Source of the DNA: Bilabrum cf. latius
Taxonomy: Eukaryota
NCBI GenBank assembly: GCA_965178125.1
Contig: OZ237742.1
Location: forward strand, 1,364,001-1,411,617
Direction: 5' to 3'
DNA length: 47,617 nucleotides
Every line of letters starts with the position of its first letter. Position 1 is the stretch's first letter. The notes beneath the pieces are model-generated. The model saw only the letters and a list, made by a program, of their open reading frames with translations. It had not been told where the DNA came from and made no database searches. The position numbers and the translations under genes were made by a program. This document shows positions 24,497-47,300 of the stretch, piece by piece.

Positions 24497-24704
24497 GATT
24501 GCTGTGGTGCAGAAATTTAGCTTATAGACTCCGAGTCTAAATCGATCGGATGCCCCACCAACAAGTAGACCTGTTATCTGCGGACCAGGCAGCATTTGGC
24601 AAATTCCTAGACTTCAATGATGGATCTTCCCTGCAATGTCTGATAATTGTCAGATCCCTGTCCTTGGGTTGTTATTTGCTACTCACACATACATGCACCA
24701 TGGT

Positions 24705-24976: not shown

Positions 24977-25070
24977 GGTTAGGGTTAGGGTTAGGGTTAG
25001 GGTTAGGGTTAGGGTTAGGGTTAGGGTTAGGGTTAGGGTTAGGGTTAGGGTTAGGGTTAGGGTTAGGGTT
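24977..25070 (+). repeat. (TTAGGG)n array T1, ~15 units
   Basis: Perfect TTAGGG repeats. Confidence 0.99.
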
Positions 25071-26719
25071 ACAGTACCATCCTAGGCCAGGCCCGGGCGC
25101 CGCGAAAGTATCATGTTCCGCAAAAAGTATCATGTTCCGCATAGACGGTGTTGCCGCGCAGTGTCCAAGTGGTCGCAAGATCGCACTGAGGCAGATCTGG
25201 GCCAGTTGCAGAGATGCAAGCAGTCGACAAGAGGTGCAAAGTCGACAAGAGGTGCAAGTGATTAGCAATGCATATTTGGTGTATGATTATGATTGTCTGC
25301 TTGGTTTGCAATGAATCTCGGCCTCGGTCTCCTCGGTGGTGCGGCCCGTGGGTGACGAGCACCCAGGGGGCTGCACGGGATGGACGCCCACCCGGCGAGT
25401 CTGGACCAAACCGCGTCGTGCAAATTGGGTTTGCCAAGGAGGTGTGCCCTGCTGTGTTTCGCCCGCGAGAATAGGGGGTTGTCTCCCCGTCGGGCAGGTG
25501 CTCCATCCAGCTCGCCCGTCCATGACTGAGACAGCACGGGCCGCGACAAGTGCGCGAGCCCGGGGATCAAGTCAGCGGCCGATGGCAGCGAGCCGGCATG
25601 AAGCGCGTGCACGAGGAGCTTGCGCTCCCCATGCACTGCCTGCCCCACCTCATTGCGGATCTGGGACATCAGGTTCATCGTGTTGCCACACACACCTCCA
25701 CACTCGACGATCGGATCTACAGAGACACCTGTCCCGGGATGCTGCTCCTCGTCATTGGCCTGCTCCTTCTCGCCCCGGGGGCACGCGCTGCCTCGAAGCA
25801 CGCACCCGCGCTCCCGCCCGACTCAAGGACTGAGTGCTGGGAGGGTGCGCGGGCAGCCGCGTGAGAGGACGACGGGCGTGCCGCCGAAGGCCGAGTCCAG
25901 GAGCTGGGGACGGGACGCATCATTGGGACTGCCCTGAGGAGACCAAAGAATCAACCGCCATCCGTACGGATCCCTATACGGTTGGCCGGTCTGACTCTCT
26001 GCTCGCCCACTGCACGGATCTGCTCAGTTCCATGCAATGTTTGCCAAAAGCGGCGAGAGGGTCTCATCAGCACAGGTGGGTCCTAAAAGCTGCCTGCAAT
26101 GCATAGGAAAAGAATAAAACGATTGAAAACAAATTAATAGCCCCTCAATGCAAGGCAACATACCCGAGTGCTGCCATGAAAACCGGACAACGCACAAGCA
26201 CGTCAGCAGACCAGCGATGATCCCATACAGATGCCAGAACCACACACAATTACAAAGCAAACAAACTGAATGAATACAATAGAATTAAAACACCTGGCGG
26301 TTGTTTTACTCGGGCTATGCTGTACCTAGCTGTTCTGTCTGCAAGCGCCATCGCGCGCCCCAATGAGGCGAGACCTAAGCAGAGCTACAGCAGCATGCCA
26401 CCTTGGACACACCGCGATATATGGCAGGAAATGGCAATTAACATTAATCCCAACAGGTTCCAGGACAGTTGAGCCTGTCTGTGGTGCTGAGAGGTGTGGT
26501 TGCGCTAGAATTCGCCAACGGTTGTGAACACTGGCAGCGGAACCAGTTAGCTAGGCGGCGCGGCGTCTTAGGCTGCACAATACTGTCAGACTTTGCAGTG
26601 AATACCGTCAATCTCGCATCATAGTTTCAAACGATGAGTACTTTTGTTGATTGTGATAGTGGAAGTCAGTCCGAGTGCATTGGTTGGGCGAATATTTGAG
26701 ATTCCTCATCTTCGGAGTT
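25071..26719. mobile_element. Telomere-embedded cassette A, copy 1 (1649 bp)
   Basis: Begins ACAGTACCATCCTAGG right after GGGTT and ends CGGAGTT before GGGTTAGGGTAGGG. Near-identical to 27588-29218; the left ~1.45 kb is homologous to 36073-~37520. Mobility is inferred. Confidence 0.7.
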
Positions 26720-27587
26720 GGGTTAGGGTAGGGTTAGGGTTAGGGTTAGGGTTAGGGTTAGGGTTAGGGTTAGGGTTAGGGTTAGGGTTAGGGTTAGGGT
26801 TAGGGTTAGGGTTAGGGTTAGGGTTAGGGTTAGGGTTAGGGTTAGGGTTAGGGTTAGGGTTAGGGTTAGGGTTAGGGTTAGGGTTAGGGTTAGGGTTAGG
26901 GTTAGGGTTAGGGTTAGGGTTAGGGTTAGGGTTAGGGTTAGGGTTAGGGTTAGGGTTAGGGTTAGGGTTAGGGTTAGGGTTAGGGTTAGGGTTAGGGTTA
27001 GGGTTAGGGTTAGGGTTAGGGTTAGGGTTAGGGTTAGGGTTAGGGTTAGGGTTAGGGTTAGGGTTAGGGTTAGGGTTAGGGTTAGGGTTAGGGTTAGGGT
27101 TAGGGTTAGGGTTAGGGTTAGGGTTAGGGTTAGGGTTAGGGTTAGGGTTAGGGTTAGGGTTAGGGTTAGGGTTAGGGTTAGGGTTAGGGTTAGGGTTAGG
27201 GTTAGGGTTAGGGTTAGGGTTAGGGTTAGGGTTAGGGTTAGGGTTAGGGTTAGGGTTAGGGTTAGGGTTAGGGTTAGGGTTAGGGTTAGGGTTAGGGTTA
27301 GGGTTAGGGTTAGGGTTAGGGTTAGGGTTAGGGTTAGGGTTAGGGTTAGGGTTAGGGTTAGGGTTAGGGTTAGGGTTAGGGTTAGGGTTAGGGTTAGGGT
27401 TAGGGTTAGGGTTAGGGTTAGGGTTAGGGTTAGGGTTAGGGTTAGGGTTAGGGTTAGGGTTAGGGTTAGGGTTAGGGTTAGGGTTAGGGTTAGGGTTAGG
27501 GTTAGGGTTAGGGTTAGGGTTAGGGTTAGGGTTAGGGTTAGGGTTAGGGTTAGGGTTAGGGTTAGGGTTAGGGTTAGGGTTAGGGTT
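26720..27587 (+). repeat. (TTAGGG)n array T2, ~144 units
   Basis: Perfect repeats after one TAGGG variant unit near the start. Confidence 0.99.
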
Positions 27588-29218
27588 ACAGTACCATCCT
27601 AGGCCAGGCCCGGGCGCCGCGAAAGTATCATGTTCCGCAAAAAGTATCATGTTCCGCATAGACGGTGTTGCCGCGCAGTGTCCAAGTGGTCGCAAGATCG
27701 CACTGAGGCAGATCTGGGCCAGTTGCAGAGATGCAAGCAGTCGACAAGAGGTGCAAGTGATTAGCAATGCATATTTGGTGTATGATTATGATTGTCTGCT
27801 TGGTTTGCAATGAATCTCGGCCTCGGTCTCCTCGGTGGTGCGGCCCGTGGGTGACGAGCACCCAGGGGGCTGCACGGGATGGACGCCCACCCGGCGAGTC
27901 TGGACCAAACCGCGTCGTGCAAATTGGGTTTGCCAAGGAGGTGTGCCCTGCTGTGTTTCGCCCGCGAGAATAGGGGGTTGTCTCCCCGTCGGGCAGGTGC
28001 TCCATCCAGCTCGCCCGTCCATGACTGAGACAGCACGGGCCGCGACAAGTGCGCGAGCCCGGGGATCAAGTCAGCGGCCGATGGCAGCGAGCCGGCATGA
28101 AGCGCGTGCACGAGGAGCTTGCGCTCCCCATGCACTGCCTGCCCCACCTCATTGCGGATCTGGGACATCAGGTTCATCGTGTTGCCACACACACCTCCAC
28201 ACTCGACGATCGGATCTACAGAGACACCTGTCCCGGGATGCTGCTCCTCGTCATTGGCCTGCTCCTTCTCGCCCCGGGGGCACGCGCTGCCTCGAAGCAC
28301 GCACCCGCGCTCCCGCCCGACTCAAGGACTGAGTGCTGGGAGGGTGCGCGGGCAGCCGCGTGAGAGGACGACGGGCGTGCCGCCGAAGGCCGAGTCCAGG
28401 AGCTGGGGACGGGACGCATCATTGGGACTGCCCTGAGGAGACCAAAGAATCAACCGCCATCCGTACGGATCCCTATACGGTTGGCCGGTCTGACTCTCTG
28501 CTCGCCCACTGCACGGATCTGCTCAGTTCCATGCAATGTTTGCCAAAAGCGGCGAGAGGGTCTCATCAGCACAGGTGGGTCCTAAAAGCTGCCTGCAATG
28601 CATAGGAAAAGAATAAAACGATTGAAAACAAATTAATAGCCCCTCAATGCAAGGCAACATACCCGAGTGCTGCCATGAAAACCGGACAACGCACAAGCAC
28701 GTCAGCAGACCAGCGATGATCCCATACAGATGCCAGAACCACACACAATTACAAAGCAAACAAACTGAATGAATACAATAGAATTAAAACACCTGGCGGT
28801 TGTTTTACTCGGGCTATGCTGTACCTAGCTGTTCTGTCTGCAAGCGCCATCGCGCGCCCCAATGAGGCGAGACCTAAGCAGAGCTACAGCAGCATGCCAC
28901 CTTGGACACACCGCGATATATGGCAGGAAATGGCAATTAACATTAATCCCAACAGGTTCCAGGACAGTTGAGCCTGTCTGTGGTGCTGAGAGGTGTGGTT
29001 GCGCTAGAATTCGCCAACGGTTGTGAACACTGGCAGCGGAACCAGTTAGCTAGGCGGCGCGGCGTCTTAGGCTGCACAATACTGTCAGACTTTGCAGTGA
29101 ATACCGTCAATCTCGCATCATAGTTTCAAACGATGAGTACTTTTGTTGATTGTGATAGTGGAAGTCAGTCCGAGTGCATTGGTTGGGCGAATATTTGAGA
29201 TTCCTCATCTTCGGAGTT
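27588..29218. mobile_element. Telomere-embedded cassette A, copy 2 (1631 bp)
   Basis: Same termini as copy 1; lacks the 18-bp duplication (agtcgacaagaggtgcaa) present in copy 1. Confidence 0.7.
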
Positions 29219-29689
29219 GGGTTAGGGTAGGGTTAGGGTTAGGGTTAGGGTTAGGGTTAGGGTTAGGGTTAGGGTTAGGGTTAGGGTTAGGGTTAGGGTT
29301 AGGGTTAGGGTTAGGGTTAGGGTTAGGGTTAGGGTTAGGGTTAGGGTTAGGGTTAGGGTTAGGGTTAGGGTTAGGGTTAGGGTTAGGGTTAGGGTTAGGG
29401 TTAGGGTTAGGGTTAGGGTTAGGGTTAGGGTTAGGGTTAGGGTTAGGGTTAGGGTTAGGGTTAGGGTTAGGGTTAGGGTTAGGGTTAGGGTTAGGGTTAG
29501 GGTTAGGGTTAGGGTTAGGGTTAGGGTTAGGGTTAGGGTTAGGGTTAGGGTTAGGGTTAGGGTTAGGGTTAGGGTTAGGGTTAGGGTTAGGGTTAGGGTT
29601 AGGGTTAGGGTTAGGGTTAGGGTTAGGGTTAGGGTTAGGGTTAGGGTTAGGGTTAGGGTTAGGGTTAGGGTTAGGGTTAGGGTTAGGGT
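29219..29689 (+). repeat. (TTAGGG)n array T3, ~78 units
   Basis: Perfect repeats, with the same TAGGG variant near the start as T2. Confidence 0.99.
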
Positions 29690-29799
29690 ATCTGGGGGTC
29701 ATGTTAGGATCGGGGCACGCCCTTTTTTGGACCAAAAATAAAAACGCCGCACATTATATATATTTAGATAGCCCTTGATCAGGAGAGTTGTTTTATGGT

Positions 29800-31170
29800 T
29801 AGTTGGCGGCACTCATTTCCAATATTGAGCGAGATATGGGGAGGTTTCGGGTCACCAGTTGAGCGGATGATTTTGGCAGGTCGTTTTAGGCATGTTCAAA
29901 GACGAATGGCCGTTTGATTGTCTATGTGGTTATCAGAAATGGCCAACAATATGGGATGCATAGCTTGTGTGCCCTGGTTGGGCATTCGCGGCGCCAGTTC
30001 CGCAGGATTGGTGAAAACTCCTTCTAGGAGCGGTTTCTCCTAGTGGTCCATCCGGAGTCAATATTGAGTGGTCCCATCGGATGCGTCTCGATGAGTAGAT
30101 CACTTTGATGGTTGGTTGGCGGCACTCATTTCCAATATTGAGCGAGATATGCCCAGGTTGGCGGTTGGCACCCAGCTGTGCCAGGGCTACTTGTAGGTTG
30201 GCGGTTGGCGAAAATTCAAATTTCGATTCACAAATCGAGACTTATATCATTCGATAGCTCGAGATCATAGAAGTCCTACACGGTAATTTGGGCGTGTCAT
30301 CATGCGATGCGGCGCCGGTTCCGCAGGATTGGTGAAAACCTTCTAGGAGCGGTTTCGCCTAGTGGTCCATCCGGAGTCAATATTGAGTGGTCGCATCGGA
30401 TGCGTCTCGATGAGTAGATCACTTTGATGGTTGGTTGGCGGCACTCATTTCCAATATTGAGCGAGATATGCCCAGGTTGGCGGTCGGCACCCAGCTGTAC
30501 TTGTAGGTTGGCGGTTGGCGAAAATTCAAATTTCGATTCACAAATCGAGACTTATATCATTCGATAGCCCTGGATCATAGAAGTCCTACACGGTAATTTG
30601 GGCGTGTCATCATGCGATGCGGCGCCGGTTCCGCAGGATTGGTGAAAACCTTCTAGGAGCGGTTTCTCCTAGTGGTCCATCCGGAGTCAATATTGAGTGG
30701 TCCCATCGGATGCGTCTCGATGAGTAGATCACTTTGATGGTTGGTTGGCGGCACTCATTTCCAATATTGAGCGAGATATGCCCAGGTTGGCGGTTGGCAC
30801 CCAGCTGTGCCAGGGCTACTTGTAGGTTGGCGGTTGGCGAAAATTCAAATTTCGATTCACAAATCGAGACTTATATCATTCGATAGCCCTGGATCATAGA
30901 AGTCCTACACGGTAATTTGGGCGTGTCATCATGCGATGCGGCGCCGGTTCCGCAGGATTGGTGAAAACCTTCTAGGAGCGGTTTCGCCTAGTGGTCCATC
31001 CGGAGTCAATATTGAGTGGTCGCATCGGATGCGTCTCGATGAGTAGATCACTTTGATGGTTGGTTGGCGGCACTCATTTCCAAAATTGAGCGAGATATGC
31101 CCAGGTTGGCGGTTGGCACCCAGCCGTACTTGTAGGTTGGCGGTTGGCGAAAACTCAAAGTTCAATTCAC
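29800..31170. repeat. ~310-319-bp tandem satellite, ~4.3 copies, with alternating unit types
   Basis: The anchor ggcactcatttcc occurs at 29808, 30121, 30440, 30750 and 31069 (spacings 313, 319, 310, 319). Confidence 0.9.
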
Positions 31171-31223
31171 ATATCAAGGCACAAATAGCTCACAAGGAAG
31201 GAGATGCCGATATCAAGGCATTT

Positions 31224-32945
31224 TCAATGCTCTGCTCCGTCCGCTGCTGCGGCCGCTTGGCGGGCATCCAGGACTCCTGTGATGTAGGCCATGCGCTGCT
31301 CCAGGCGTTCCAGCAGCCAGTCTGCATTCTCGCCTTCACGGACATCGCACATCCGGACCTGGTTTCCAGCTCTGCGCTTCTGCTTCCCGATCCTCTTGGA
31401 GTTGTCCTTGTACTTTTGAACCTCCTAGACGGTGATCGGGGCTGCACCTGCTGCTTGTGGTGCTGGCGGGACTGGTGCTTGACCTGCAGCTCCTGCAGCA
31501 GCTTGTGCTGGCGGGGCTGGTGCTTGACCCGCAGCTCCTGCTGCAGCGTGCGGTGCTGGCGGGACTGGTGCTTGACCCGCGGCTCCTGCAGCAGCTTGTG
31601 CTGGTGGGACTGGCCCTTGACCTGCAGCTCCTGCAGCAGCTTGTGCTGGTGGGACTGGTGCTTGACCTGCAGCTCCTGCAGCAGCTTGTTGGGCTGGCGG
31701 GACTGGTGCTTGACCTGCAGCTCCTGCAGCAGCTTGTTGGGCTGGCGGGGCTGGTGCTTGACCCGCAGCTCCTGCTGCAGCGTGCGGTGCTGGCGGGACT
31801 GGTGCTTGACCTGCAGCTCCTGCAGCAGCGTGTGGTGCTGGTGGTGCTGGAGCCGGGGCTGGGGCCTGGGAGTTCCCGCGACGAGCTCTTAGGCGACCAT
31901 TTGACCGCCCTTTGCGGCTCCGCATACCTGATGCATGCATCTCCGCCTCCTCCTCTGCCTTCTCGTCGTCGAAATCAGAGCCCTCATCGTCGCTCTCGGA
32001 GTCGTCGTCACTGGGAGCCGCCTCACCATCGTGCTCATCCTCGCTGTCGCTCCCACTTTCATCATGCTGGTCGTAGGACGAGGCACTTCCCGCGCCCCTG
32101 CCTGCACCCGATGCAGCGCCCGTGCGTCCAGGAGCCTTCCCCTTGTGACGAGCCGCAGAGCGTTTGGACTTGGCTGCTGCTGCTGCCGCGCCCGCCTCGT
32201 CGTCCTCATCGGATTCGCCCTCCTCAAAGACATGCCTGAGCAGAGCATTCCGAAATCCTCGGCTGGCCTTGGAGCCCGAGATGCGCCGCGACTTGCCAGG
32301 TGCACCCCTCGCGGCTCGCCCCCGTGCCGGGCCGATCGAGCCCTTGGCCGAACTGGACCCGCCGCGGGCCTTATGACGTCCAACTGGCCCTGGTTGGGGC
32401 ACTGCCAGAATCCTTGGCATCATGTCGTCCTTGGTGCTGAACCAGGACGTCTGCATGTCCTCTGACCCGAAGACATCCTGCAAGACCGCCTGCATAGCGT
32501 TGTCTTCCGTACGACTGCCGTGTCGCCGTGCCATCCTCACAAGCCACCCAGGAATATCATGCACCTTCCTCTTGTTTAGGGCAGCGCGACCATTCACCAA
32601 CCATGTGATCTTGCCTACAGTCCAGTCATCGTCACGAGCCTTCCTGACCGCCTCCAAGAAGTTTTCTACGCCGTCCTCCGCTCCCCCGCGACTGGCGAAC
32701 GCGTAGGCAACTGCATCGGTTGTCGTGTTGTCTGCAACTTCCACGTCGACCTCCATGTCCTCCAGAACGGCCTGAACTTGCTCGCGGACTCGGCCTCGCA
32801 CATCCTCGGCGGGCGCAAGCACGCAGCCTGTCCCCTTCAGGAAGCCATGCAGCGTAACCACAAGGACCTTGGCGGCGTTGGCCCTCGGTGTCTTGCCGAT
32901 GATGTCCACGATGGTCTGAGAGATGTCGTTGTGCTTGGGTGGCAT
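31224..32945 (-). CDS. Hypothetical protein of cassette B (~573 aa): globular N-terminus, basic and acidic tracts, Ala/Pro/Gly/Gln repeats
   Basis: Long ORF 31425..33125, likely start MPPKHNDISQ at 32945. Reading through the TAG at 31427-31425 adds a helical tail (EVQKYKDNSKR...WLLERLEQRMAYITGVLDARQAAAAADGAEH) ending TGA. The repeat APVPPAQAAAGAAGQ occurs ~8 times. Confidence 0.7.
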
Positions 32946-34260
32946 GGCCTGCGCGAAGAAGAAGTGCGGCAGATAGCGCAAGATAGGTTGTGGCTGCGGT
33001 GGGAGGGCGGCACCACATGCAGCTGCCGTGCGCAGACACAGCACTGGACCAACCATTCGATATGGCACCAAGGGGTCCATTCCAATCAGGAAACATGCCA
33101 CTATTCGATGCAACATAGGTTGCAACCGGGCATCTCAAGTTGCAACCGATCGTGTCACACAAGCAAACCAGATTTGCAGTAGCGTGCACTTTCCAGCCAC
33201 CACCAATTGCAGTTGGGAGGGATGCCCTCATTTCAGCTCGGACAAAGGCCACAGTGAGACAACCAGGCATTCGTGTGTACTTAAATAGTAATATTGCATA
33301 CATCTGACAAGGTCGGAAGTCACAAAGCTCGAGCATTGCAACGATCATACGGTCATGTCAGCCGGCGCACCTCGCTCCCAGACAAATCACCAAATTGCGC
33401 CCCGCAGGAAAAGAAAATCGCCGCGGCGCGCGTTGCAAACAAAACGTGAGACAACAATGCAACTATAGACGCGCGGCTGCATGGCAGTTTGCGCGCAGGA
33501 TAGTGCGCGCACAGGGCGAATCCATTCCAGCTGTCCGGCGCACCCAGCACGTTGGGCCAATTTTTGCCATGTTCCCGCGGACAATTTTCAATCGCAGGCT
33601 CCCAAAGTCTATTTTAGACATCATTGAATACAACTGTTCGCTATAATTCTCACGTGAGTTCTTTTTTGTGGGTTTGAAAAATGAGCGTCTCGCGTCCGAC
33701 AGCGGGCCGGCTGCGTGGCCGTCCGGAGCCGTTTTGCGGGGGAGGGGTGTGATGAGTGCACCGTGCGCCGTGCCCCGGTTGGATGGCATGCCTAACTGAA
33801 GCTCATTGGAGTACTATTACCCCTGTGCCATGGTTCCCCGGCCCTGGACCAGGCCTCGTGCACCCAAATTCCGGCCGCCCGGCACCAGCCCTCCAGACGG
33901 GGGTGCGCGCGGCCCCGGGAGGCGACGGGGGCGGGTGCCCGACCATGCAATGTGTTCTTGTGGCCCTTGGGGGCTAAGGCAGCCGCCCCTTGTTCCCTGA
34001 TGATGTGTGTCTGGCTTGCTGCACCGGTGTGGAGGTGCTCGCCGGGTGGGCCCCGCGCTGCGGGGCCTTCCCAGGCTCCTATCCTACAGTGTGCTGCAGG
34101 GTGCACTGCAGGGTGCTGTTAGTGTCTGCTGCATGTATTGTCGCATGTCTGCTACGTTGCTAGTGCCGCGGGAGCGTTCTCGACCCGTCCCGCCAAGCTC
34201 CCCCACTGCCCCCCACTGCCGCCCAACGCACCATCCGCATGTATGGAGTGCTGCGTTCTG

Positions 34261-34717
34261 GTAGGGTTAGGGTTAGGGTTAGGGTTAGGGTTAGGGTTAG
34301 GGTTAGGGTTAGGGTTAGGGTTAGGGTTAGGGTTAGGGTTAGGGTTAGGGTTAGGGTTAGGGTTAGGGTTAGGGTTAGGGTTAGGGTTAGGGTTAGGGTT
34401 AGGGTTAGGGTTAGGGTTAGGGTTAGGGTTAGGGTTAGGGTTAGGGTTAGGGTTAGGGTTAGGGTTAGGGTTAGGGTTAGGGTTAGGGTTAGGGTTAGGG
34501 TTAGGGTTAGGGTTAGGGTTAGGGTTAGGATTAGGGTTAGGGTTAGGGTTAGGGTTAGGGTTAGGGTTAGGGTTAGGGTTAGGGTTAGGGTTAGGGTTAG
34601 GGTTAGGGTTAGGGTTAGGGTTAGGGTTAGGGTTAGGGTTAGGGTTAGGGTTAGGGTTAGGGTTAGGGTTAGGGTTAGGGTTAGGGTTAGGGTTAGGGTT
34701 AGGGTTAGGGTTAGGGT
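34261..34717 (+). repeat. (TTAGGG)n array T4, ~76 units
   Basis: Perfect except one TTAGGA at ~34525-34530. Confidence 0.99.
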
Positions 34718-36072: not shown

Positions 36073-37926
36073 ACAGTACCATCCTAGGCCAGGCCCGGGC
36101 GCCGCGAAAGTATCATGTTCCGCAAAATGTATCATGTTCCGCAAAGACGGTGTTGCCGCGCAGTGTCCAAGTGGTCGCAAGATCGCACTGAGGCAGATCT
36201 GGGCCAGTTGCAGATATGCAAGCAGTCGACAAGAGGTGCAAGTGATTAGCAATGCATATTTGGTGTATGATTATGCTTGTCTGCTTGGTTTGCAATGAAT
36301 CTCGGCCTCGGTCTCCTCGGTGGTGCTGCCCGTGGGTGACGAGCACCCAGGGGGCTGCACGGGATGGACGCCCACCCGGCGAGTCTGGACCAAACCGCGT
36401 CGTGCAAATTGGGTTTGCCAAGGAGGTGTGCCCTGCTGTGTTTCGCCCGCGAGAATAGGGGGTTGTCTCCCCGTCGGGCAGGTGCTCCATCCAGCTCGCC
36501 CGTCCGTGACTGAGACAGCACGGGCCGCGACAAGTGCGCGAGCCCGGGGATCAAGTCAGCGGCCGATGGCAGCGAGCCGGCATGAAGCGCGTGCACGAGA
36601 AGCTTGCGCTCCCCATGCACTGCCTGCCCCACCTCATTGCGGATCTGGGACATCAGGTTCATCGTGTTGCCACACACACCTCCACACTCGACGATCGGAT
36701 CTACAGAGACACCTGTCCCGGGATGCTGCTCCTCGTCATTGGCCTGCTCCTTCTCGCCCCGGGGGCACGCGCTGCCTCGAAGCACGCACCCGCGCTCCCG
36801 CCCGACTCAAGGACTGAGTGCTGGGAGGGTGCGCGGGCAGCCGCGTGAGAGGATGACGGGCGTGCCGCCGAAGGCCGAGTCCAGGAGCTGGGGACGGGAC
36901 GCATCATTGGGACTGCCCTGAAGAGACCAAAGAATCAACCGCCATCCGTACGGATCCCTATACGGTTGGCCGGTCTGACTCTCTGCTCGCCCACCGCACA
37001 GATCTGCTCAGTTCCATGCAATGTTTGCCAGAAGCGGCGAGAGGGTCTCATCAGCACAGGTGGGTCCTAAAGGCTGCCTGCAATGCATAGAAAAAGAATA
37101 TAACGATTGAAACTAATTAATAGCCCCTCGATGCATGGCAACATACCCGAGTGCTGCCATGAAAACCGGACAACGCACAAGCACGTTAGCAGACCAGCGA
37201 TGATCCCATACAGATGCCAGAACCTAACAGAAACACCAACAATCAATTTGAATGAATACAATAGAATCAAAATACCTGGCGGTTGTTGTACTCGGGCTAT
37301 GCGGTACCTAGCTGTTCTGTCTGCAAACGCCATGGCGCGCCCCAATGAGGCGAGACCAAAAGCAGACCCACAGCAGCATGTCACCTTGAACACACAACGA
37401 TGTATGGCAGTAAATGGTAATTAACATGAATCCCAACAGGCCTCAGTACAGTTGAGCCGGTATGTGGCGCTGAGAGGTGTGGTTGCGCCAGAATCCGCAA
37501 ACGGTCGTGAACAGCGGAACCAGCATGCGCGGCGCCGAGGACGTCCAGCAGGGCAAGCCTGTAGCAGGGTGTGCACCGGTTCACGGTACCGATGCTTGGA
37601 TGTTTGTGGGCTAGGAATCTGTTTTGTAATACACATGATAGGGTTAGCCCTAACCCTTCAGAATCGGATGCATGGTTCATTTACTTCCATGAGAAGGGCT
37701 GACGTCCTGCATGCACTACATTAGCCCAAATACAACACACGCACATGTCGTCTTGAAACAGTGTAATTTGCACCTCTTTATATTACAGTGGATATAACTC
37801 ATGGCGAGAGAGGCCTGTCTGTCTGCAGTGCTGCAATGCAGCTCTTCACTGCTGCACATGCAGCTCGAGGTTCTGCAAGTTATCTGTTCTGCATAGAAAA
37901 TCACAGAACATGACACCTCACTGGCC

Positions 37927-40900
37927 TCATGTCCATTTCTCATCAAACCCCCAGCCTTCTTGCTCAATTGCTGGGATGTGTACCCACCGTGGAGCGGTGC
38001 CAAGAAGAAGGATCTCGATTTCGCCACGTGCCCGTGAAATATCTCGCTGGCCCATACCACGCAATCCAGCGCCGGGCACTGATGGCGCCATGTTCTGGTC
38101 ACCACGAATTCCTCTAGGTCGTGACAGTGCTGAAGTCGGCGGCTGCGTGATGGCGCTGGAGGCTGCTCCCAGCGGCGGCTGCAACTCGGCAAGGCCGTCA
38201 CTACCAGCCTTGTCGGTAGGCATCTGCAGCAATCGACCGATTGGATCATCATCGCTGCCAGCCCCACTGGATGCTGATGCCGAGGCAGGCCTCAATGGTT
38301 CCGATGCCCTGCTGCCGATCGCAGTTCGGTTGAATGCGTTGGCCTCCGTTCGTTCTGCGGGTCTCGAGCTCGCATGCTCGCCGGATTGCCGCATGTGCCT
38401 TGATCGCTTCTATTGCCCTTCTTCCTCATCGCTCTCATGGCCGGGCCAAATATGTCCCAACGAATCTAGGCTATGCTCAAGAGCAGAAGTAGCGGTGGAT
38501 GCCTGTGACAGGATGCTGTCGCCATCGTCAAGAGGACGAGCACGTGTGTACATCCGAAGAACCTAGCTGCAGTGTTGCGATTGAGGTATGTGATACGCAC
38601 GCCAAAGCTCGTGCCTCTGGTCGGCACTCACGCCTGCTTCTCCTGCTTCTGCACGTGCTCGGGCCACCATGGATCGGACATCTCCCACAGCTTTCAAGCT
38701 TTGAGCTAGTGACCTGCGTACCAGCCCCTTGCCTGCTGCCTTGTAGTACGGGGCTTCTGATAGTGCAGGCACTACTGATGGACTACAGGGCAGGTTAATG
38801 CAGAGACCAGCGCCGTAGTAGCCTACATCGATGACACGACGCAGTGACCCATCCTACCTGTTCAGCGCCCCTCTGAAGACTTGAGGACAATCAAAGCCTG
38901 GGTTCATCCACTTGAAATGATCTAGCACGACAGACTCCACGTGCTGGGCAATGGTAACGGCAGGCTGGGCGGTTCTTGGTGGTGGCGAGACGTCGAGCAC
39001 TGTCTAAAGTCCAGATCGTGCAATCGGCGGCTGGCCTCCCCTTGGTCGCTTCGTTCCAGGCAGAGGGGGCCGCTGCAACCGATCGGGCAGCAATACTGCA
39101 GACCCAATCACACACGCAGGTAAAAGCCACACTGATACCATACGACGAAACTGCTCGTCTGCGAGGGATGGCTGTCCGTTCTGCCTGGTGCCTACGACAG
39201 CACGAAGAATTGAAGCGACGTACGAGGTCCGGACAGATGACTCGGCAGCAAGCTTGCGTTGCATGGTCCAGGATAACGTTGTTATCAACGCATAGCCTAG
39301 CTTGGAGGCCCTAGCAGATGTCGTGGTCGCCAAGTCACCCCTGAGATTCCCAGCGTTCTTAGAGCCGCGCCACATTGCGCCTGCATCTGGCCTGGGACTG
39401 AAGGCAATCTTGGATATGCACATCTGCAAGCCAACTAGTATTGCACTCCTTGAGCACCTGAGCCGAGATAGGAGCAGCCCGTACAGTGCTACAGCTAGGC
39501 TGCCCCTTGCTAGCATTCCTTTCCGTGTGCCACTGCGAAGGTGGAGCTTTGCCAGGTGCATTTGCGCAAGGTAAAGCTTCCGTAGCTGCTGCTCCATGAC
39601 TACAGCGTGGGACATGTCTGTAGACTTGGCAAAGTGCAACAATAGCCTGGACCGCTCAGGCAGTCGAGACAAAATGTCAGCCTGCACGTCAGCCCGTACC
39701 ATAGCACGAAAGCCGGTGATTCCGTTGTTCACACCGCTGATGCCCAACTGGAAGTGCTCGTCACCTTGCGTTGATACGAGTCCAGAAAGACCATACCTCT
39801 CGGAGATCCGAGAGATCTGCCATGTCATGCCCAAGCCTTCTGCCAACGCACACAGGCTCCAAGACGTTACCATAACCTCACAGACGGCAAGCACAGTCCA
39901 CGAGTTCAAGAACGTACCGTTGCACCCCCCAGCCCTGACTGACTACACCGCATTTCCGATTTGATCAATGATGGCGGATGCAACCGCCATTACATTAGAC
40001 TGCTCAGGCATACTGCTAGCAGATTGCAAACAGTCACGGACGCTGGACCACTCCAGTGTCGAAGGCCCTAAGTTTCGAAGAACTGGCCTAGTAGCGGGAA
40101 GCCACGTTACGGCAATTTGCTCTGCAACAACCTGAGACCATGCATCTGTCCGTAGAGCCACGCAGCCTTCCATACAGCATCTGCTCATCGATGCAGCTAG
40201 CGCCCACATCGCCGATCGCTGATACGTGGGAATCCTGTCTGCACCACAGACAGCTGCTACGAGCAGTCTTTCGATTCTGCAAAGTGCCCGACGGAGTGTA
40301 TACCTGAGCATTTCCAAGTGATTCATGATGGATGTCTTCTTCACGACCTCCACGAAGCATTGCGAGAATGGAGCCACTGACAAATGCTCGATAGTGTCGG
40401 CGCGATGTTCACTCCGTAACTGTCCGTACTGCAGTTCAGCTGGTAGCACTACGGAGGCCAGCATCAGACTCATGGTTGACGCGGGTACATCGAACTCGCC
40501 CCTGGTCGATCCAAGGATTCCTGCAGTTAGCCTTGCATAGCTTTGAGTGAATGCCGTTTGCAGCCCAAGGTATATCCGCCGGCGGGTTGGCAGTGCATCC
40601 AGAGCTGCCTAGGCTCGAATCATGCTTGCAGTTCTCGAACTCAAAGTCGATGGAGCATGTGCACCCGATTCAGCGAAGTGGCGAACCTTAGAGAGAACTC
40701 GTCGGCGAAACTGGTCATATGCAGAGTCGTGCGCCCCTGGACTAGGCTGAAATGCTCGGAATGCTCCAGGCTGGTACAAATGCAGCTGAGATGACAGCAT
40801 GCAGCCAAGTGACATAAATGAAGGCATGCCGTAGTCGTTGCCAGTGTCATTCTCGGCTAAAACACGTCGGTGCACGGAAAGCACGTCACCCCAGGATAGC

Positions 40901-43900
40901 GTAGCTGGAAGCATTCCTTGGAAGGTTCCGGCGTACTCTCCAACGGACGCCAGCGCCGCATATGGACGAATTCGCTCTTGCATCACGGCATACCGTGCGT
41001 GTTCGAGCCGTGTTCCGTGTATGACTCCTCGCAGCAACTGATCCCGACAGCTATGCATGTACTGAACTGTTGCTGGGTTCGGTACAGCAACTGACACTGA
41101 GCGTTCACCACACACCTCAAAGCCTACGCCAAAACTGCAGTACATGGCCATATCCGCATCCTGTTGCGGCCACAGCTGTCCGTACGGATGAATTATGGCT
41201 GCGAGATCTCTCATACCTCGGCGTTGATGACGTCCAGTCCAAGCAGGTGCTCGCGCCGCGCCGCGGTACAGCTCTTCCCGAGCACTGCGTGTCAGTGTTT
41301 TCCTGCTCACCTTCCTGTTTGTAGCGCCTGACGCCGATCGCTTGCCATCTCCTGTTGGACCAAACCATTCACCTCTGCGGCCTCTGGCAAACTCCTCATC
41401 GCTCTCATCCATTGCGATCTCCCGAGCACGTTCTTCTTCTGCCTGCTGGGCAGCCAAGTCTTCATGAGCTTTGCGAAGCTGTCCCTGTGCTGCCTGTTGC
41501 AAGAGAGACATAGGATTGCATGCTTTGCAGCCCACTCGCTAGGCGTAGAACACGGAGCACCTGGCTATCTGTCTCATCAGCAGTATCATGAGGAAGCAGT
41601 TGTAGTGTGATACTAAGTGCAGATGATCAAGTAAAGAGTCGTGACTCAAAGACCACTCGTAGGAGCTGCTGTGCTATGCTTCATCATCCTCCACGCCACG
41701 TTGCTTAGCGAAGTCGTCGTCCTCATCCACGTCCACGTCGGTGTCGTCTGAATCGCTCTGCGCAGCAGCACCACCGCTTATTCCCACGCCTTCATTCTGC
41801 TGAGCCTCGTCAGAATCAGAGTCAGAGTCACTCAACTAGTCAACGGCTGGGTAGCCAAGCCACCGTACCCAATGAAATGCGCACGAAAGCAACCGGGATG
41901 GGCTTCTGTGCAGGGTGTGAGAGCCAGGCCAGAATCTACTTGTCTGTGGACCAGGTCCACTCCCAGCGTGTGCGAGCGACGAATGGTATCCACCGGCTTG
42001 GCCTCCACCACGTTGGACACGTACCACTAGCTCTGGACCTAGCCAGTCGAGCCTGCTGGCAGCAGCCGTGAGCCCGCAGCCGAAGACGTACAGCACACAG
42101 CTTCGGATTACATCCACATGGGAGCCCTGGGTCCAGAAGCCTTCATGCATACTCATTTCTACAACACCCTCAGTATCAAGCGTTTGCTGCAAGGACTGAG
42201 ACGGAGGTTCGAACGAGTCTATCAGGTCACGGCAAAGATCAAGCAATCCACTAGGTACAAGAATAGATACCGTAGCAGCACCAACATCGAAAAGTTGAAC
42301 GTGGATGTCAGCAGCGAGTCCGCGCAGTATACGAAGCGTTGGCAATTTCGACGATTGATCGTTTGCGTTTTCTGCTTGCGTGCTGACAGCCCTACTCCAC
42401 AAGGTTCCAGAATGCGGCACCACTGAAGCCCACCCTTCCCTTGCAGCCTTGTCGACATCACGATGGAACTATCGGGTGCACTCCTACTCAATTAGTTTGC
42501 TATACTTGGTAACATCAGACAAGGCTCCGGCAGCCAACACCCGGATGCTTGAGCCACCAAGTCCATTCGGACACTTCTGCTGCAGATCGGTCACCTTGGA
42601 TCGTAAGCTATCAATCTGCTCTTGGTCGCAACGACGCTCAGCCCACAGCATCGCAGTTTGCTAGTCTTTGAAAACGTCATCCCCGTCATCAAGGAATGCT
42701 GTCCATGATATGCGCATTGATCCGCCGGCAGGCGGCCGCTGTGCGTGCGGGGCGCGAACTACCACGCCAGTTGAGGGTGATTGAGACAAGCTGGTATACG
42801 ACGGAAGCAGCGAATCTGAGTCATGTACACCTAGAACGCCATCTGTGATCCAGTCCAGCAGTGCATGGTCCGATCCATCAAGCCCCAGTGGGCTTGCCAA
42901 CGTGTGAGGCAGAAAGTGGTTCGAAGTCTCGTCTGCACTGGATCCATTGAGGTCTGCGACAGCTCCAAGAACAGTGAACCCATCTAAATCAAATGCAGAA
43001 TCGCTGTGACAAGACAGCGGTACGTTTCTGGAACCTGGTGCAGACTTGAACGCTCTATATATCGCAGGCTGGTCCGGAATTGTGCTGTCCATTGATCTTC
43101 GCGGAGAGGCCGAGCTTGACAGGCCTCGGCTTGCACTCGGAGTGACGGGCTAGCTGGATGTTCGACTCTCTTTGACAGCGACTTTCTTCCTTGCTGCGGC
43201 ACGAGATCCTTGCCTTCGGACGGCGGGCAATGGAGCGAACCCAAGGCACATGCCTGCCAAGAAGTCCAGGGGGGATGACAGGTGCTGTTGAGGTCCAGAC
43301 TCCGTTTCTGGTTGGGACATCTGATCGAGCGAGCTGCCAGTGGCCTAGCTGGCACCATGAGAACTACTGCTGGGGCTGCTTGCGGCGCCTGACGACTGTC
43401 GACGGCGGCTTGGCGAGCTGCCAGTGGCCTAGCTGGCACCACGAGAACTACTGCTGGGGCTGCTTGCGGCGCCTGACGACTGTCGACGGCGGCTTGGCGA
43501 GCTGCCAGTGGCCTAGCTGGCACCACGAGAACTACTGCTGTGGCTGCTTGCGGCGCCTGACGACTGTCGACGGCGGCTTGGCGAGCTGCCAGTGGCCTAG
43601 CTGGCACCACGAGAACTACTGCTGGGGCTGCTTGCGGCGCCTGACGACTGTCGACGGCGGCTTGGCGAGCTGCCAGTGGCCTAGCTGGCACCACGAGAAC
43701 TACTGCTGGGGCTGCTTGCGGCGCCTGACGACTGTCGACGGCGGCTTGGCGAGCTGCCAGTGGCCTAGCTGGCACCACGAGAACTACTGCTGTGGCTGCT
43801 TGCGGCGCCTGACGACTGTCGACGGCGGCTTGGCGAGCTGCCAGTGGCCTAGCTGGCACCACGAGAACTACTGCTGGGGCTGCTTGCGCCTCGTGACGAT

Positions 43901-44605
43901 CGTGCACGAGTAGCCGTTTCAGGAAGATCGAATCCCCGCATCTCACTGTGTGCTCCTGACATCTCTGCTCGGGCAGCGAGAGCAGCTTGGGCAGGCAGAT
44001 ATCCAGTTGGCGCGTACTAGCAGCAATCAACCAGCGATACGTATGTATGCAGATCTGACTCCTTGATCAAGTCGTCAATTAATTGTTTGTGAAATATTTC
44101 TGCATCAGCGCTGGGTGTATCGTAGACCGTGAGAAGATCGGCCAGCATGCCATTTTCGATGACATCGCTTGAGACTCCAAGTTCTCGAAGGCACTCCTAA
44201 ATTTCTTCGACTTCGATGCCATCCATCTGCGATATAATAAACTGAAGTTCAATATACTGCGGTTGCTGCTGAGATGTACTCCTATTATCCCAACTGTAGC
44301 TCTGCCTTACTTCAGCTGGCGGATTCGGCTGCTGGGGATCGAAAGTGCGGATCATCTCTAATTTTTCTTCGGATATCTGCGTAACAATGCAACATAAGTA
44401 TGTATTGAGCTGTCTGCGGCGGATAGCAAATCAATACTGCCCATATACTCCACATAGAACTCACTGGAACGTGCTACCAAAACAGAGCTCGACGATTCAT
44501 TGCTCGCTGCAATCTTTTGAGTACTTTGTGCATAGATTGCATCTAGCGTGTATCATCTAAGACTTTACATGCATCGTCAATGGAACACAAGGTTTCGTCA
44601 GACAT
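37927..44605 (-). CDS. Giant hypothetical protein (~2,170 aa) visible only with UAG read as sense; predicted exons 44605-44465, 44376-44311, 44226-37927
   Basis: ORFs 42661..43092, 41836..42423, 40609..41535, 39943..40473, 39004..39909, 38563..38772 and 37927..38394 all share one frame. Scanning the gaps found only TAG (~22 in 6.3 kb) and no TAA/TGA until 37929-37927. The 5' exons are joined by GTGAG..CAG and GTAAG..CAG introns. No known domain recognised; further 3' exons are not excluded. Confidence 0.8.
43329..43887. repeat. 84-bp coding tandem repeat, ~6.7 copies
   Basis: gcgagctgccagtgg starts at 43329, 43413, 43497, 43581, 43665, 43749 and 43833. It encodes GAS*ATGSSPSRRRQSSGAASS(P/H)SSSSR in the giant ORF frame, with one TAG per unit. 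Confidence 0.95.
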
Positions 44606-44816
44606 CTTTAGGCCGGTTCTGGCGCAAGCAATACTCAACGGAATATTGTGCGCGTCCCCCTCGTGGGGGGCGAGTGCCACCAGTGGGGGGTGCGTGCGGC
44701 GCCGCGCTCGACGGCGGAACACAGTATCTCAAACTGCAAGTGGTCTCGAACATCAAGATTTTTTTGTTTGCTTGCTGGCATTTTGTTTCTCTTCTGCCAG
44801 GCAGTGTGAAAAATAT

Positions 44817-45764
44817 ATGTCAGACCATGCATCACCGTGGGCATTGCTTGGATTGAAGCCTGTAGACTTCGCAACGGAAAGTCTCGCAATCCGCCGAGGC
44901 TTGTGTATCGCAGCTTGCGGCATATCGGTTGAAACCGTGCGGTGCATCTTTTAGGATGGTGCCTATGTATCTGCGCGATAGCGTACATCACTTCATAGTG
45001 TAATGCAGCGTATTTGTGCGACAGATGACGGCAAAGTGCTGCGTGTCGACCCAAGCTTCTTGCTTGCGGAAACAGGCCAAAGACACTTGCGTTATGCTAT
45101 CAATAGTATTAAAGAGAAGTCTGACGACGCAATCAGACGTGCCATGATGAAACTGGCTCCACAGAATGGGTTGGCGTTGCATGGAACCGGCAAGCACGCA
45201 CCAAGCTCGTCGAAGCACGTCGAAAAGATGGCATGTGCTACTGCAGCTGAAGACGACACTGCAAATACTCAAAAGGGCTCATGCCTGAGATCATCTGCCT
45301 CTGGGTGTGCAAGATCGGAATCGAAAGGCAATGTTGGCTCAGGCTCCAGCCAGTAGCACCGGCGTGCACGGCGGGGCTAGTCCAAGGTCCACGGCCAGAA
45401 GATGCCGACTCAAGCCCAAGTATACTCGTGGCAAGAGGCAGTACTGCATCTGCGAACGCTCTGTGACGCATGCGAGCAGAAGGCTCACCTGACCGGAGCG
45501 GAAGCTCGCAGCTTGGTCAGATTGGCTAGCAGCAGCATCGAACCAGCTCTCGGGCGTCTAATGCAACTGGCGCGCGCAGACAAGTCTAAGAGGTCTGTGC
45601 CACTTAAGCGGACTGCTACAGCGAGAACGAGCCTATCGCGTACACCCGTCGAGTTGCCCAAAAGGAGGAGAGGGGAGAAAAGGAAATTGCTCGCTGGGGA
45701 TGCGACGCCATCGAAAAGGTGTAGGAGCATCCCTGGTGCAGTTTCGTTTCTTTCAGGGAAGTAA
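44817..45764 (+). CDS. Hypothetical basic protein of cassette D (315 aa), divergent from the giant ORF
   Basis: ORFs 44580..44954, 45003..45356 and 45402..45764 share one frame, linked by four TAGs. Likely start MSDHASPW; ends TAA. NLS-like PKRRRGEKRK near the C-terminus. Confidence 0.65.
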
Positions 45765-45859
45765 ATACTAGGTCAATACAGGTGGGCACTCGCCATCTCA
45801 CTTCTATATCCACCCAACACTCCCCCCTCCTAACTTCCAGCCAAATTGGCACCACGGCG

Positions 45860-46095
45860 CCATCCATCGCCCGCACAAACAACCTCCTTGCCCCGGCACA
45901 GCCACCATGGCCCCCATCCATCGCCCGCACACCCACCCTCCTTGCCCCGGCACAGCCACCATGGCCCCCATCCATCGCCCGCACACCCAACCTCCTTGCC
46001 CCGGCACAGCCACCATGGCCCCCATCCATCGCCCGCACACCCACCCTCCTTGCCCCGGCACAGCCACCATGGCCCCCATCCATCGCCCGAACACC
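45860..46095. repeat. 54-bp telomere-adjacent satellite, ~4.3 copies, related to the 53-bp satellite at 24705
   Basis: ccatccatcgcccg starts at 45860, 45914, 45968, 46022 and 46076. Confidence 0.92.
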
Positions 46096-47300
46096 TTAGG
46101 TTAGGGTTAGGGTTAGGGTTAGGGTTAGGGTTAGGGTTAGGGTTAGGGTTAGGGTTAGGGTTAGGGTTAGGGTTAGGGTTAGGGTTAGGGTTAGGGTTAG
46201 GGTTAGGGTTAGGGTTAGGGTTAGGGTTAGGGTTAGGGTTAGGGTTAGGGTTAGGGTTAGGGTTAGGGTTAGGGTTAGGGTTAGGGTTAGGGTTAGGGTT
46301 AGGGTTAGGGTTAGGGTTAGGGTTAGGGTTAGGGTTAGGGTTAGGGTTAGGGTTAGGGTTAGGGTTAGGGTTAGGGTTAGGGTTAGGGTTAGGGTTAGGG
46401 TTAGGGTTAGGGTTAGGGTTAGGGTTAGGGTTAGGGTTAGGGTTAGGGTTAGGGTTAGGGTTAGGGTTAGGGTTAGGGTTAGGGTTAGGGTTAGGGTTAG
46501 GGTTAGGGTTAGGGTTAGGGTTAGGGTTAGGGTTAGGGTTAGGGTTAGGGTTAGGGTTAGGGTTAGGGTTAGGGTTAGGGTTAGGGTTAGGGTTAGGGTT
46601 AGGGTTAGGGTTAGGGTTAGGGTTAGGGTTAGGGTTAGGGTTAGGGTTAGGGTTAGGGTTAGGGTTAGGGTTAGGGTTAGGGTTAGGGTTAGGGTTAGGG
46701 TTAGGGTTAGGGTTAGGGTTAGGGTTAGGGTTAGGGTTAGGGTTAGGGTTAGGGTTAGGGTTAGGGTTAGGGTTAGGGTTAGGGTTAGGGTTAGGGTTAG
46801 GGTTAGGGTTAGGGTTAGGGTTAGGGTTAGGGTTAGGGTTAGGGTTAGGGTTAGGGTTAGGGTTAGGGTTAGGGTTAGGGTTAGGGTTAGGGTTAGGGTT
46901 AGGGTTAGGGTTAGGGTTAGGGTTAGGGTTAGGGTTAGGGTTAGGGTTAGGGTTAGGGTTAGGGTTAGGGTTAGGGTTAGGGTTAGGGTTAGGGTTAGGG
47001 TTAGGGTTAGGGTTAGGGTTAGGGTTAGGGTTAGGGTTAGGGTTAGGGTTAGGGTTAGGGTTAGGGTTAGGGTTAGGGTTAGGGTTAGGGTTAGGGTTAG
47101 GGTTAGGGTTAGGGTTAGGGTTAGGGTTAGGGTTAGGGTTAGGGTTAGGGTTAGGGTTAGGGTTAGGGTTAGGGTTAGGGTTAGGGTTAGGGTTAGGGTT
47201 AGGGTTAGGGTTAGGGTTAGGGTTAGGGTTAGGGTTAGGGTTAGGGTTAGGGTTAGGGTTAGGGTTAGGGTTAGGGTTAGGGTTAGGGTTAGGTTAGGGT
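46096..47300 (+). repeat. (TTAGGG)n array T6, ~200 units; probable true terminal telomere
   Basis: Longest array, G-rich strand running 5'->3' toward the window end, followed only by bacterial sequence. Confidence 0.97.

Follow-up and report, generated by a model that had tools for sequence, protein, structure and literature searches.

Telomere-capped segments stacked between six TTAGGG arrays at an assembled chromosome end of Bilabrum cf. latius

To our knowledge, most described cases of telomere tracts alternating with unique DNA come from survivors of telomerase loss (type I in yeast, TALT in the worm) or are degenerate remnants in the subtelomeres of human chromosomes. HeT-A/TART, SART/TRAS and MoTeR are telomere-resident retroelements, and the Y' elements of yeast encode a helicase. 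Short yeast telomeres are described to gain Y' together with a terminal tract via internal-tract recombination and Pol32-dependent break-induced replication (BIR) (PMC4222662). TALT blocks of C. elegans are described to carry same-sense telomere-like tracts on their flanks and to lie in tandem in the telomeres (PMC4595603), while internal (TTAGGG)n tracts of human chromosomes are reported at duplicon boundaries, oriented to the telomere (Ambrosini et al. 2007, PMC2323237), and Terminons (Athena) are said to bear host genes between their copies (PMC6431247).

The window analysed here, i.e. the whole stretch of 47,617 nucleotides from contig OZ237742.1, contains six near-perfect arrays of TTAGGG that measure 95 to 1203 bp, all run along the + strand and separate five segments termed cassettes A1, A2, B, C and D. 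The assembled contig order is T1-A1-T2-A2-T3-B-T4-C-T5-D-T6, with each of the five segments telomere-capped (positions 24977-47301). Array limits and unit counts were obtained by TRF plus a tokenising script. T1 (24977..25071, +) consists of 15 perfect TTAGGG units and directly follows a native telomere-associated satellite (24691..24976, +) in which TRF finds a 53-bp unit repeated 5.5 times. T2 (26720..27588, +) holds 1 + 142 units, its initial units carrying the same variant as the start of T3 (29219..29689, +), which holds 1 + 76 units. T4 (34262..34717, +) is composed of 43 units, one TTAGGA variant and 31 further units, T5 (35455..36073, +) of 92 units, one variant and 9 units, and T6 (46099..47301, +) of 198 units, one short unit and 1 unit. 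The internal arrays thus measured 95-869 bp, none holding more than one variant unit, and tokenising also places the segment-to-array junctions at unrelated sequences, with irregular first units. All five cassettes end in a same-sense telomere tract within 0.7-10 kb. The 18-mer (TTAGGG)3 occurs 590 times on the + strand of the window against a mean of 0 in 100 shuffles, and (TTAGGG)2 is absent upstream of 24900. A first-pass annotation of this DNA had given an array range of 94-1205 bp, close to the measured values, and had described a single orientation and sharp cassette boundaries; the former is borne out by the absence of (CCCTAA)2 anywhere in the window and the latter by the array limits from TRF and tokenising. 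Its division of the cassettes into three unrelated families likewise holds, as self-BLAST and alignment return A/D, B and C. T1 is probably the remnant of the chromosome's original short telomere, and T6 is probably the true terminal telomere.

In cassette A1 (25072..26719, +), 1475 bp are homologous to the inner end of D and a further 173 bp are unique in the window; cassette A2 (27589..29218, +) matches A1 in the alignment apart from a single 18-bp repeat unit. At its inner end, D is 95-97% identical to A over its first 1.45 kb (36074-37523) by self-BLAST and alignment, which makes A a copy of the ~1.47 kb of D adjoining the inner telomere. Along the alignment, A-D identity falls from ~99% beside the tract to 82% at the far end, and the outermost 173 bp of A are not D sequence. 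That A and D share one terminus, as had been proposed, was confirmed by alignment: A1, A2 and D have a common start base after TTAGGGTTA in 3/3 copies, with substitutions between A and D scattered. The same start base together with these scattered substitutions points to a genuine paralogous, biological junction and not to a random break. As A1+T2 and A2+T3 share variant first telomere units, the duplicated unit is A plus its tract. Tandem copies split by an internal tract are present as A1-T2-A2 in the truncated form A only, and D is single in the window. An exact search for the A/D terminus gave 0 matches in a genome-contig collection and 0 in a viral-contig collection.

Cassette D (36074..46098, +) sits between T5 and T6, that is, between an internal and the terminal tract, and, besides the A-homologous inner end, includes a giant gene, a coding repeat with an 84-bp unit (43329-43899) and, at 45860-46095, a satellite of 54-bp units. 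The giant frame (37930..44430, - strand) spans 2167 codons with 22 in-frame TAG and 0 TAA/TGA, ends in a TGA stop, and is open only when TAG is read as sense. It carries no known domain: Pfam returned zero families for the 2167-residue frame. Nine database homologues were found, of which public protein sets contain only fragments. Compared with a 1902-codon, TAG-containing frame on the metagenome contig L081, which likewise uses TAG as sense, the giant frame shows 29% identity over 852 residues (E 5e-77) and 26% over 453 residues, the homologue thereby spanning about 1300 residues at 26-29% identity. L081 also carries a terminal, G-rich 49-bp minisatellite ~1.5 kb upstream of its giant frame, a layout as in D; outside the giant frame, the flanks of D as well as B and C have no counterpart in L081. 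Judged by this sequence conservation, D carries a real, conserved gene. Searched against PDB sequences, the D and L081 frames gave 0 hits, and a structure predicted for residues 1075-1790 of the D frame from a 12-row alignment reached a mean pLDDT of 31.5, too low for use. D or part of D was found in 8 sequencing-run rows from 4 studies, all of them Logan contigs, with no RNA among the rows. The outer 54-bp satellite of D is ~80-83% identical to the 53-bp satellite before T1 (self-BLAST), and by TRF and self-BLAST the chromosome's own end and D both finish with such a related 53/54-bp satellite followed by TTAGGG. Ending in a native-type satellite plus telomere, D resembles a copied chromosome tip rather than a discrete mobile unit.

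Cassette B (29690..34261, +) contains a 319-bp tandem repeat (29988-31175) and a 48/93-bp repeat (31456-31841), both detected by TRF, and a frame of 636 codons (31227-33134, - strand) with 1 TAG and a TGA stop. The B frame matches no Pfam family, and its residues 1-300 have no homologue among proteins of 349-1113 residues. Cassette C (34718..35454, +) consists of 61 bp followed by a 155-bp satellite repeated 4.4 times (TRF). Both B and C open with TATCT directly after the tract; beyond TATCT, the similarity of their starts is not significant, with 12.8% of 500 shuffles scoring equally. The T3-to-B region (29662-29990) was also compared with the contigs of four sequencing runs, X1, X2, X7 and X8. 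Positions 29662-29790 were uncovered in all 4 runs; in X2, 29809-29990 was covered with one mismatch, in X1 only a 48-bp piece common to the 319-bp repeat was covered, and X7 and X8 gave nothing, a comparison that skips repeat letters and in which gaps in coverage are not informative. A restriction-site or adapter origin of the junctions was considered as well and rejected, since the four junction types begin with different sequences.

Hallmarks of mobile elements were searched for throughout the stack. In a Pfam search of the 2167-residue D frame plus 138 frames of at least 70 residues (TAG=Q), no reverse transcriptase (RT), helicase, transposase or integrase was detected, and at E values up to 0.1 neither RVT nor any other enzyme family appeared apart from chance matches in repeats. 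In region 24600-47617, a chance miRNA match was the only Rfam hit, and no hammerhead was detected. Neither poly(A) nor poly(T) runs were found at the junctions, self-BLAST of the window lists no inverted or LTR-like self-matches, D has no terminal inverted repeats, the terminal folds of the cassettes are not significant (z 0 to +1.6), and no paralogue of the cassettes is present within the 24.7-kb chromosomal part. The statement of the first-pass annotation that the stack lacks a poly(A), LTR, TIR or RT motif is in line with these results (Pfam, self-BLAST, junction inspection and TIR test), and Pfam on the D frame and the 138 further frames shows neither an RT nor a helicase to be encoded. 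Its proposal of a gene-carrying, telomere-resident family stands in part: the kinship of A and D and the conserved D gene agree with it, whereas D looks like a copied tip, and B and C are not evidently elements. The most economical way for the cassettes to spread is by recombination through TTAGGG tracts.

Whereas the earlier description stopped at T6, the window continues at 47302-47617 into a truncated bacterial gene. This fragment of rplD (47302..47617, +), encoding ribosomal protein L4 (Pfam PF00573, E 8e-32), lacks the first 16 codons; compared with the start in L001, it is 5'-truncated and begins at residue 17, occupying the 316 bases after T6. It is of Phycisphaerae type, with a best amino-acid identity of 79% to Phycisphaeraceae MAGs. 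The T6-to-rplD junction is certainly not chromosomal, and the 316-base tail is an assembly or read chimera. Contigs of this assembly can therefore pass through telomere tracts into foreign DNA, which matters for annotation and for claims of horizontal gene transfer.

With slightly better than even confidence, we propose that Y'/TALT-like recombination via telomere tracts brought in the telomere-capped segments, which telomerase healed, the segment order T1-A-A-B-C-D being taken from the assembled contig. Positions 1-24976 would represent a gene-bearing chromosome end of a eukaryote with TAG as glutamine and TGA as stop, the native end comprising T1 and the 53-bp satellite before it. Beyond this end, A, A, B, C and then D would follow, each with its own telomere tract, and D may be a complete chromosome-tip copy consisting of the giant gene, the 54-bp satellite and the long telomere T6. 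To arrive at this structure, a telomere eroded to ~90 bp would have paired with an internal tract elsewhere, from which break-induced replication copied the distal DNA. Ends that broke or stalled within a segment would have been healed by telomerase, and such healing would result in arbitrary segment-to-TTAGGG junctions. The A+T unit may subsequently have been duplicated by unequal exchange between its flanking tracts. D and A would then act as a Y'-type subtelomeric family with a large conserved gene of unknown function, while B and C would be passenger pieces from other subtelomeres. The long perfect arrays and healed junctions suggest that telomerase is active. Some observations do not sit easily with recombination through tracts. 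B gave no homologue and C is nothing more than a satellite, the TATCT common to the starts of B and C is not predicted by simple BIR from a tract, and the internal arrays are unusually long and nearly perfect, which implies either very recent events or terminal telomeres of other molecules.

In two rival explanations, the contig joins what the genome keeps apart. An assembler mis-join would leave the tract-flanked cassettes real but on different chromosome ends, with the contig walking through identical repeats, namely the tracts and the 1.65-kb copies of A, and an order that does not reflect one molecule. T6 running into the truncated bacterial gene shows an array followed by foreign DNA, the same form as the other joins, so that this assembly has been falsely extended at a tract at least once; moreover, only 18 bp distinguish A1 from A2, and T2 and T3 have identical starts, which leaves an exact repeat of at least 2 kb open to mis-threading. 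Long-read assemblers, however, normally need overlaps longer than 95 bp or 456-619 bp, and T1 (95 bp) as well as T3, T4 and T5 (456-619 bp) fall below this usual requirement; arrays of 95-869 bp would be too short for an overlap assembler to join reads via the array alone. Each array also has a definite and different length, as expected if spanned by single reads, and two A copies 869 bp apart, distinguishable by an 18-bp unit, imply reads holding A-T-A. We regard a mis-join as unlikely, albeit worth keeping in mind. Library or read chimeras throughout, in which separate telomere-ended molecules became linked in vitro or in silico and everything past T1 is foreign to this chromosome, appear very improbable. 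Array lengths of 95-1203 bp do fit natural terminal telomeres, the arrays are almost variant-free, and the T6-to-rplD junction is exactly such a join, the only one shown to lead into DNA that is non-contiguous in the organism. Random partners, however, would for the most part lack telomeres and could point either way, and few of them would reach a same-sense telomere within 0.7-10 kb, as 5/5 cassettes do here. Three diverged paralogous cassettes with one start base and the TATCT shared by B and C are also hard to obtain in this way, and no sequence resembling familiar adapters was seen at the junctions.

Biological alternatives to tract recombination were weighed on the same junctions. Telomere-primed retrotransposition in trans would have an RT from another locus copy D (and B) transcripts, primed by the 3' end of the G strand, with A as 5'-truncated products and telomerase recapping the ends. 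The long D and B frames lie on the minus strand with their 3' ends abutting the inner tract, and HeT-A/TART show the same orientation, the 3' end of the element facing the inner chromosome side. This orientation also matches the 3' attachment stated for Terminons (PMC6431247), the junction base is constant in 3/3 A/D copies, and A is the repeat-capped, 3'-side 1.47 kb of D. RT is absent from all frames, however, as are a hammerhead or other Rfam family, poly(A)/poly(T) and a significant terminal fold; the outer end of D is of the native chromosome-end satellite type, the outermost 173 bp of A are foreign to D, and C amounts to nothing but satellite. That both frames share a strand is weak evidence as well (two of two, chance 0.25), and altogether we consider this route improbable. 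Equally doubtful to us is end-joining capture, in which broken tips (segment + telomere) of other chromosomes were successively ligated in vivo to an uncapped telomere. Fusion of uncapped telomeres gives mostly head-to-head tracts, which are absent from the window, and the common start base of A1, A2 and D is unlike random breaks, unless one event was followed by duplication. In favour of capture, the cassettes begin abruptly after a complete tract and end in their own tract, and orientation is kept, as in the tip-translocation model described for human subtelomeres (PMC2323237).

If the stack is real, it represents a natural wild-type case of long perfect internal tracts alternating with unique DNA, offers a system for studying tract recombination and telomerase healing at chromosome ends beyond model organisms, and points to a large conserved telomere-adjacent protein family without known domain. 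In a thin literature search, we found no paper on such a stack in a TAG-recoded alga. A bolder reading, possible but rather unlikely in our view, is that D/A represent a hitherto undescribed class of units that reside at telomeres, carry genes and lack an RT, in a lineage with TAG as glutamine, and that move between ends via long perfect tracts under active telomerase. The alga would then keep mosaic ALT-like telomeres, the giant protein would have a telomere function, and the terminal minisatellite, ~1.45 kb and ~2000-codon gene would have been kept together across species at 26-29% protein identity. As a much more remote extension of this reading, ends of this kind might even take up foreign DNA in vivo, the rplD piece being an example.

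Among described systems, the Y' ends of S. cerevisiae (X - internal TG1-3 - Y' - TG1-3 - Y' - terminal tract) share with this locus a multi-kb, long-ORF unit between an internal and a terminal tract, tandem copies divided by tracts (here A1/A2), a junction with a recipient tract that is short (here the 15 units of T1) and a terminal tract of the donor that is copied along. Unlike in Y', the D gene encodes no helicase or any known domain (Pfam, PDB) and is transcribed toward the centromere, Y' being transcribed in the opposite direction; the internal tracts are longer and perfect here, and the unrelated B and C are interspersed. Telomere retroelements (Athena/Terminons, HeT-A/TART, SART/TRAS, MoTeR) likewise form head-to-tail arrays divided by telomere repeats; the orientation of D and B fits their coding strand antisense to the G strand, and A resembles their repeat-capped truncated copies in part, its last 173 bp being foreign to D. 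RT, hammerhead and poly(A) are missing here and the outer end of D is a native-type subtelomeric satellite. TALT1/TALT2 ('template for ALT') are genomic blocks with same-sense tract flanks at a chromosome end, a description for which A, B, C and D all qualify. TALT arrays, as described, stem from telomerase-deleted survivors (PMC4595603), whereas the arrays here suggest active telomerase, and several different blocks are present instead of one amplified block. As in human duplicon stacks, the internal tracts lie exactly at segment boundaries and point endward, with D and A as copies of other tips; the human islands reported are degenerate and usually measure 150-200 bp, with a maximum of 823 bp (PMC2323237), compared with 95-869 bp and 0-1 variant here, and the cassettes are far smaller (0.7-10 kb). 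Overall, the stack looks much like the piled-up former chromosome ends of yeast and human.

The first-pass annotation had described six TTAGGG arrays in one orientation with cassettes strung between them, a description that proved correct by 18-mer counting, TRF and tokenising. The 18-mer (TTAGGG)3 occurs 590 times in the window, on the plus strand only, and in none of 100 shuffles; scripted searches detected no (CCCTAA)2 across the entire window and no (TTAGGG)2 upstream of position 24900. With limits set by TRF and a tokenising script, T1 (24977-25071) consists of 15 perfect units, T2 (26720-27588) of 1 + 142 units, T3 (29219-29689) of 1 + 76 units, T4 (34262-34717) of 43 units, one TTAGGA and 31 units, T5 (35455-36073) of 92 units, one variant and 9 units, and T6 (46099-47301) of 198 units, one short unit and 1 unit.

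The cassettes enclosed are A1 (25072-26719, between T1 and T2), A2 (27589-29218, between T2 and T3), B (29690-34261, between T3 and T4), C (34718-35454, between T4 and T5) and D (36074-46098, between T5 and T6). One 18-bp repeat unit is the sole difference between A1 and A2, and as the arrays following them, T2 and T3, open with identical irregular units, the duplicated unit is A together with its tract. D opens with 1450 bp that share 95-97% identity with A; following TTAGGGTTA, both begin at the identical base. Divergence between A and D consists of scattered substitutions, and identity is about 99% beside the tract, declining to 82% at the end farthest from it; the homology ends at A 26546 / D 37523, and the remaining 173 bp of A find no match in the window. 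A 19-bp direct repeat of about two copies, 30 bases inside the A/D terminus, is kept in all three (25105-25141, 27622-27658 and 36102-36145). B and C show no kinship to A/D or to each other apart from a common TATCT directly after the tract, and the overall similarity of their starts is not significant. Both carry degenerate telomere-like G-rich hexamers 10-30 bases inside the start (29690-29730 and 34718-34750, respectively). No cassette resembles the 24.7-kb chromosomal part at the DNA or protein level.

A 53-bp satellite (24691-24976) directly precedes T1, while a 54-bp satellite about 80-83% identical to it (45860-46095) precedes T6. Because of these related satellites, the chromosome proper, left of T1, and cassette D both terminate as 'satellite then TTAGGG', which we take to be the normal chromosome end in Bilabrum cf. 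latius. Where A, B and C meet the tracts that follow them, the sequences are unrelated and the first TTAGGG unit is incomplete, matching what telomerase healing of broken ends would give.

Cassette D contains a minus-strand frame of 2167 codons (37930-44430) in which TAG occurs 22 times and TAA and TGA are absent. Pfam assigned no family to its product or to any of 138 other cassette frames of at least 70 residues, a PDB sequence search with this frame and its long counterpart described below gave no match, and the AlphaFold model of D-protein residues 1075-1790 (pLDDT 31.5) was unusable. Nine proteins on ENA, Logan and JGI contigs came out of an exhaustive HMMER search in which residues 965-2000 served as query: eight are fragments with 56-88% identity, and the ninth, of 364 residues, has 35%. 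The long counterpart lies on an 8118-bp JGI metagenome contig (L081), whose 1902-codon frame (1671-7376; 24 TAG, no other stop) aligns with the D protein in two stretches, 852 residues with 29% identity (E 5e-77) and another 453 with 26%. The D gene is therefore real. One end of L081 is occupied by a G-rich minisatellite with a 49-bp unit, some 1.5 kb upstream of the frame. D is laid out likewise, its 54-bp satellite being separated from the frame by 1.43 kb. Beyond the giant frame the two loci have no sequence in common, and L081 contains no TTAGGG run. The D frame includes an 84-bp tandem unit (x 6.8, 43329-43899) encoding a Ser/Gly-rich 28-residue repeat, and the minus-strand frame of B (31227-33134) a 48/93-bp tandem unit (31456-31841) coding for an Ala/Pro/Gly-rich repeat.

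Left of the arrays, the window codes for proteins of ordinary eukaryotic kinds: a mitochondrial carrier, a cupin-8/JmjC-like protein, Ctf4/Mcl1, an EHD-type dynamin-like ATPase and a protein whose CCT match is sub-threshold. Four of the five need TAG to be read through for their frames to stay open. Long conserved TAG-bearing frames (1280-23079, 37930-44430 and L081) have 1-22 in-frame TAG in the window and no TAA or TGA, and TGA terminates all eight frames examined. The D/L081 protein alignment has four sites of conserved context at which TAG stands opposite canonical glutamine, and one TAG occurs in both. TAG is thus used as a sense codon, probably for glutamine. As far as TAG is concerned, the code resembles NCBI table 6; for TAA, of which the frames hold none, they give no indication either way. 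L081 represents a second organism also reading TAG as sense. The CCT match (E 5.5e-5, under the Pfam cut-off) is only a hint towards the green lineage. Nearest to the native satellite on its chromosomal side lies a frame (23555-24613, minus strand, 353 codons) that has no TAG, ends with TGA and belongs to no Pfam family. Minisatellites (GCCCCT x 20, a 39-bp unit x 7, CAGGCT x 14 and ATCCTG x 7; at 12298-12823, 17144-17224 and 55-94) also occur in the chromosomal part, some within long TAG-containing frames.

The 316 bases after T6 (47302-47617) encode ribosomal protein L4, rplD (PF00573, E 8e-32), with best matches in Phycisphaeraceae MAGs at 79% amino-acid identity; the gene is 5'-truncated, its start corresponding to residue 17 in an L4 of 226 residues used for comparison. 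As a telomere tract is here fused inside a bacterial gene at the very window end, the likeliest account of the fusion is a chimera, arising in a read or by extension during assembly. It proves that at least one 'array then foreign DNA' junction in contig OZ237742.1, T6-rplD, is false, and indicates a bacterial companion or contaminant, a Phycisphaerae-type planctomycete, in the sample. That random chimeras also created the cassettes is extremely improbable: three diverged A/D copies would hardly have one common start base, nor B and C a common 5-base start, and ligation partners would almost never reach a same-sense tract within 0.7-10 kb, as all five cassettes do. A pure graph walk by the assembler is unlikely too, given arrays of definite, differing lengths (95-869 bp), which the overlaps needed by long-read assemblers usually exceed, and two A copies distinguished by 18 bp, with a resolved 869-bp array between them. 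These points are arguments, not measurements, and the cassette order, like the B and C junctions, is provisional; the left junction of B lacks contig cover from sequencing runs, a kind of gap that carries no weight for or against a junction.

A retroelement origin would account for D and B frames antisense to the G strand, for the constant A/D junction and for the correspondence of A to the 3' side of D, a pattern shared with the Terminon arrays described in PMC6431247. We nevertheless hold it to be highly doubtful, since Pfam found no RT in the D protein or the 138 other cassette frames, no hammerhead, terminal structure, TIR or LTR was found, the junctions lack poly(A), and the outer end of D is a native-type satellite. 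The absence of poly(A), LTR, TIR and RT motif noted in the first pass was thus borne out by Pfam on the frames, self-comparison and junction inspection.

With the cassette order as assembled, we lean towards recombination of the yeast Y' type as the best fit. According to PMC4222662, a yeast telomere with a short terminal tract recombines with the internal tract lying between X and Y', after which the complete Y' together with its terminal tract is copied onto the short end by Pol32-dependent BIR. By analogy, T1 with its 15 units would be what is left of a recipient telomere that had eroded, and the copied chromosome tip would comprise D, its satellite and T6; unequal exchange between tracts could have duplicated A with its tract, and healing could have produced the arbitrary cassette-to-tract junctions. 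The initial proposal of a possibly undescribed family of telomere-resident elements, spread through TTAGGG tracts or mobilised in trans, is partly supported: tract recombination is retained, and the structure belongs to a known kind, in which internal telomere tracts mark the boundaries of subtelomeric segments. Like the stack, worm TALT consists of genomic DNA between same-sense tracts, in tandem in ALT telomeres (PMC4595603), and human subtelomeres have islands at duplicon boundaries (PMC2323237). The stack is unusual in its recoded host and, unlike Y', TALT and the human islands, in its long and perfect internal tracts and its small and varied cassettes, and its novel giant gene, unlike that of Y', is not a helicase.
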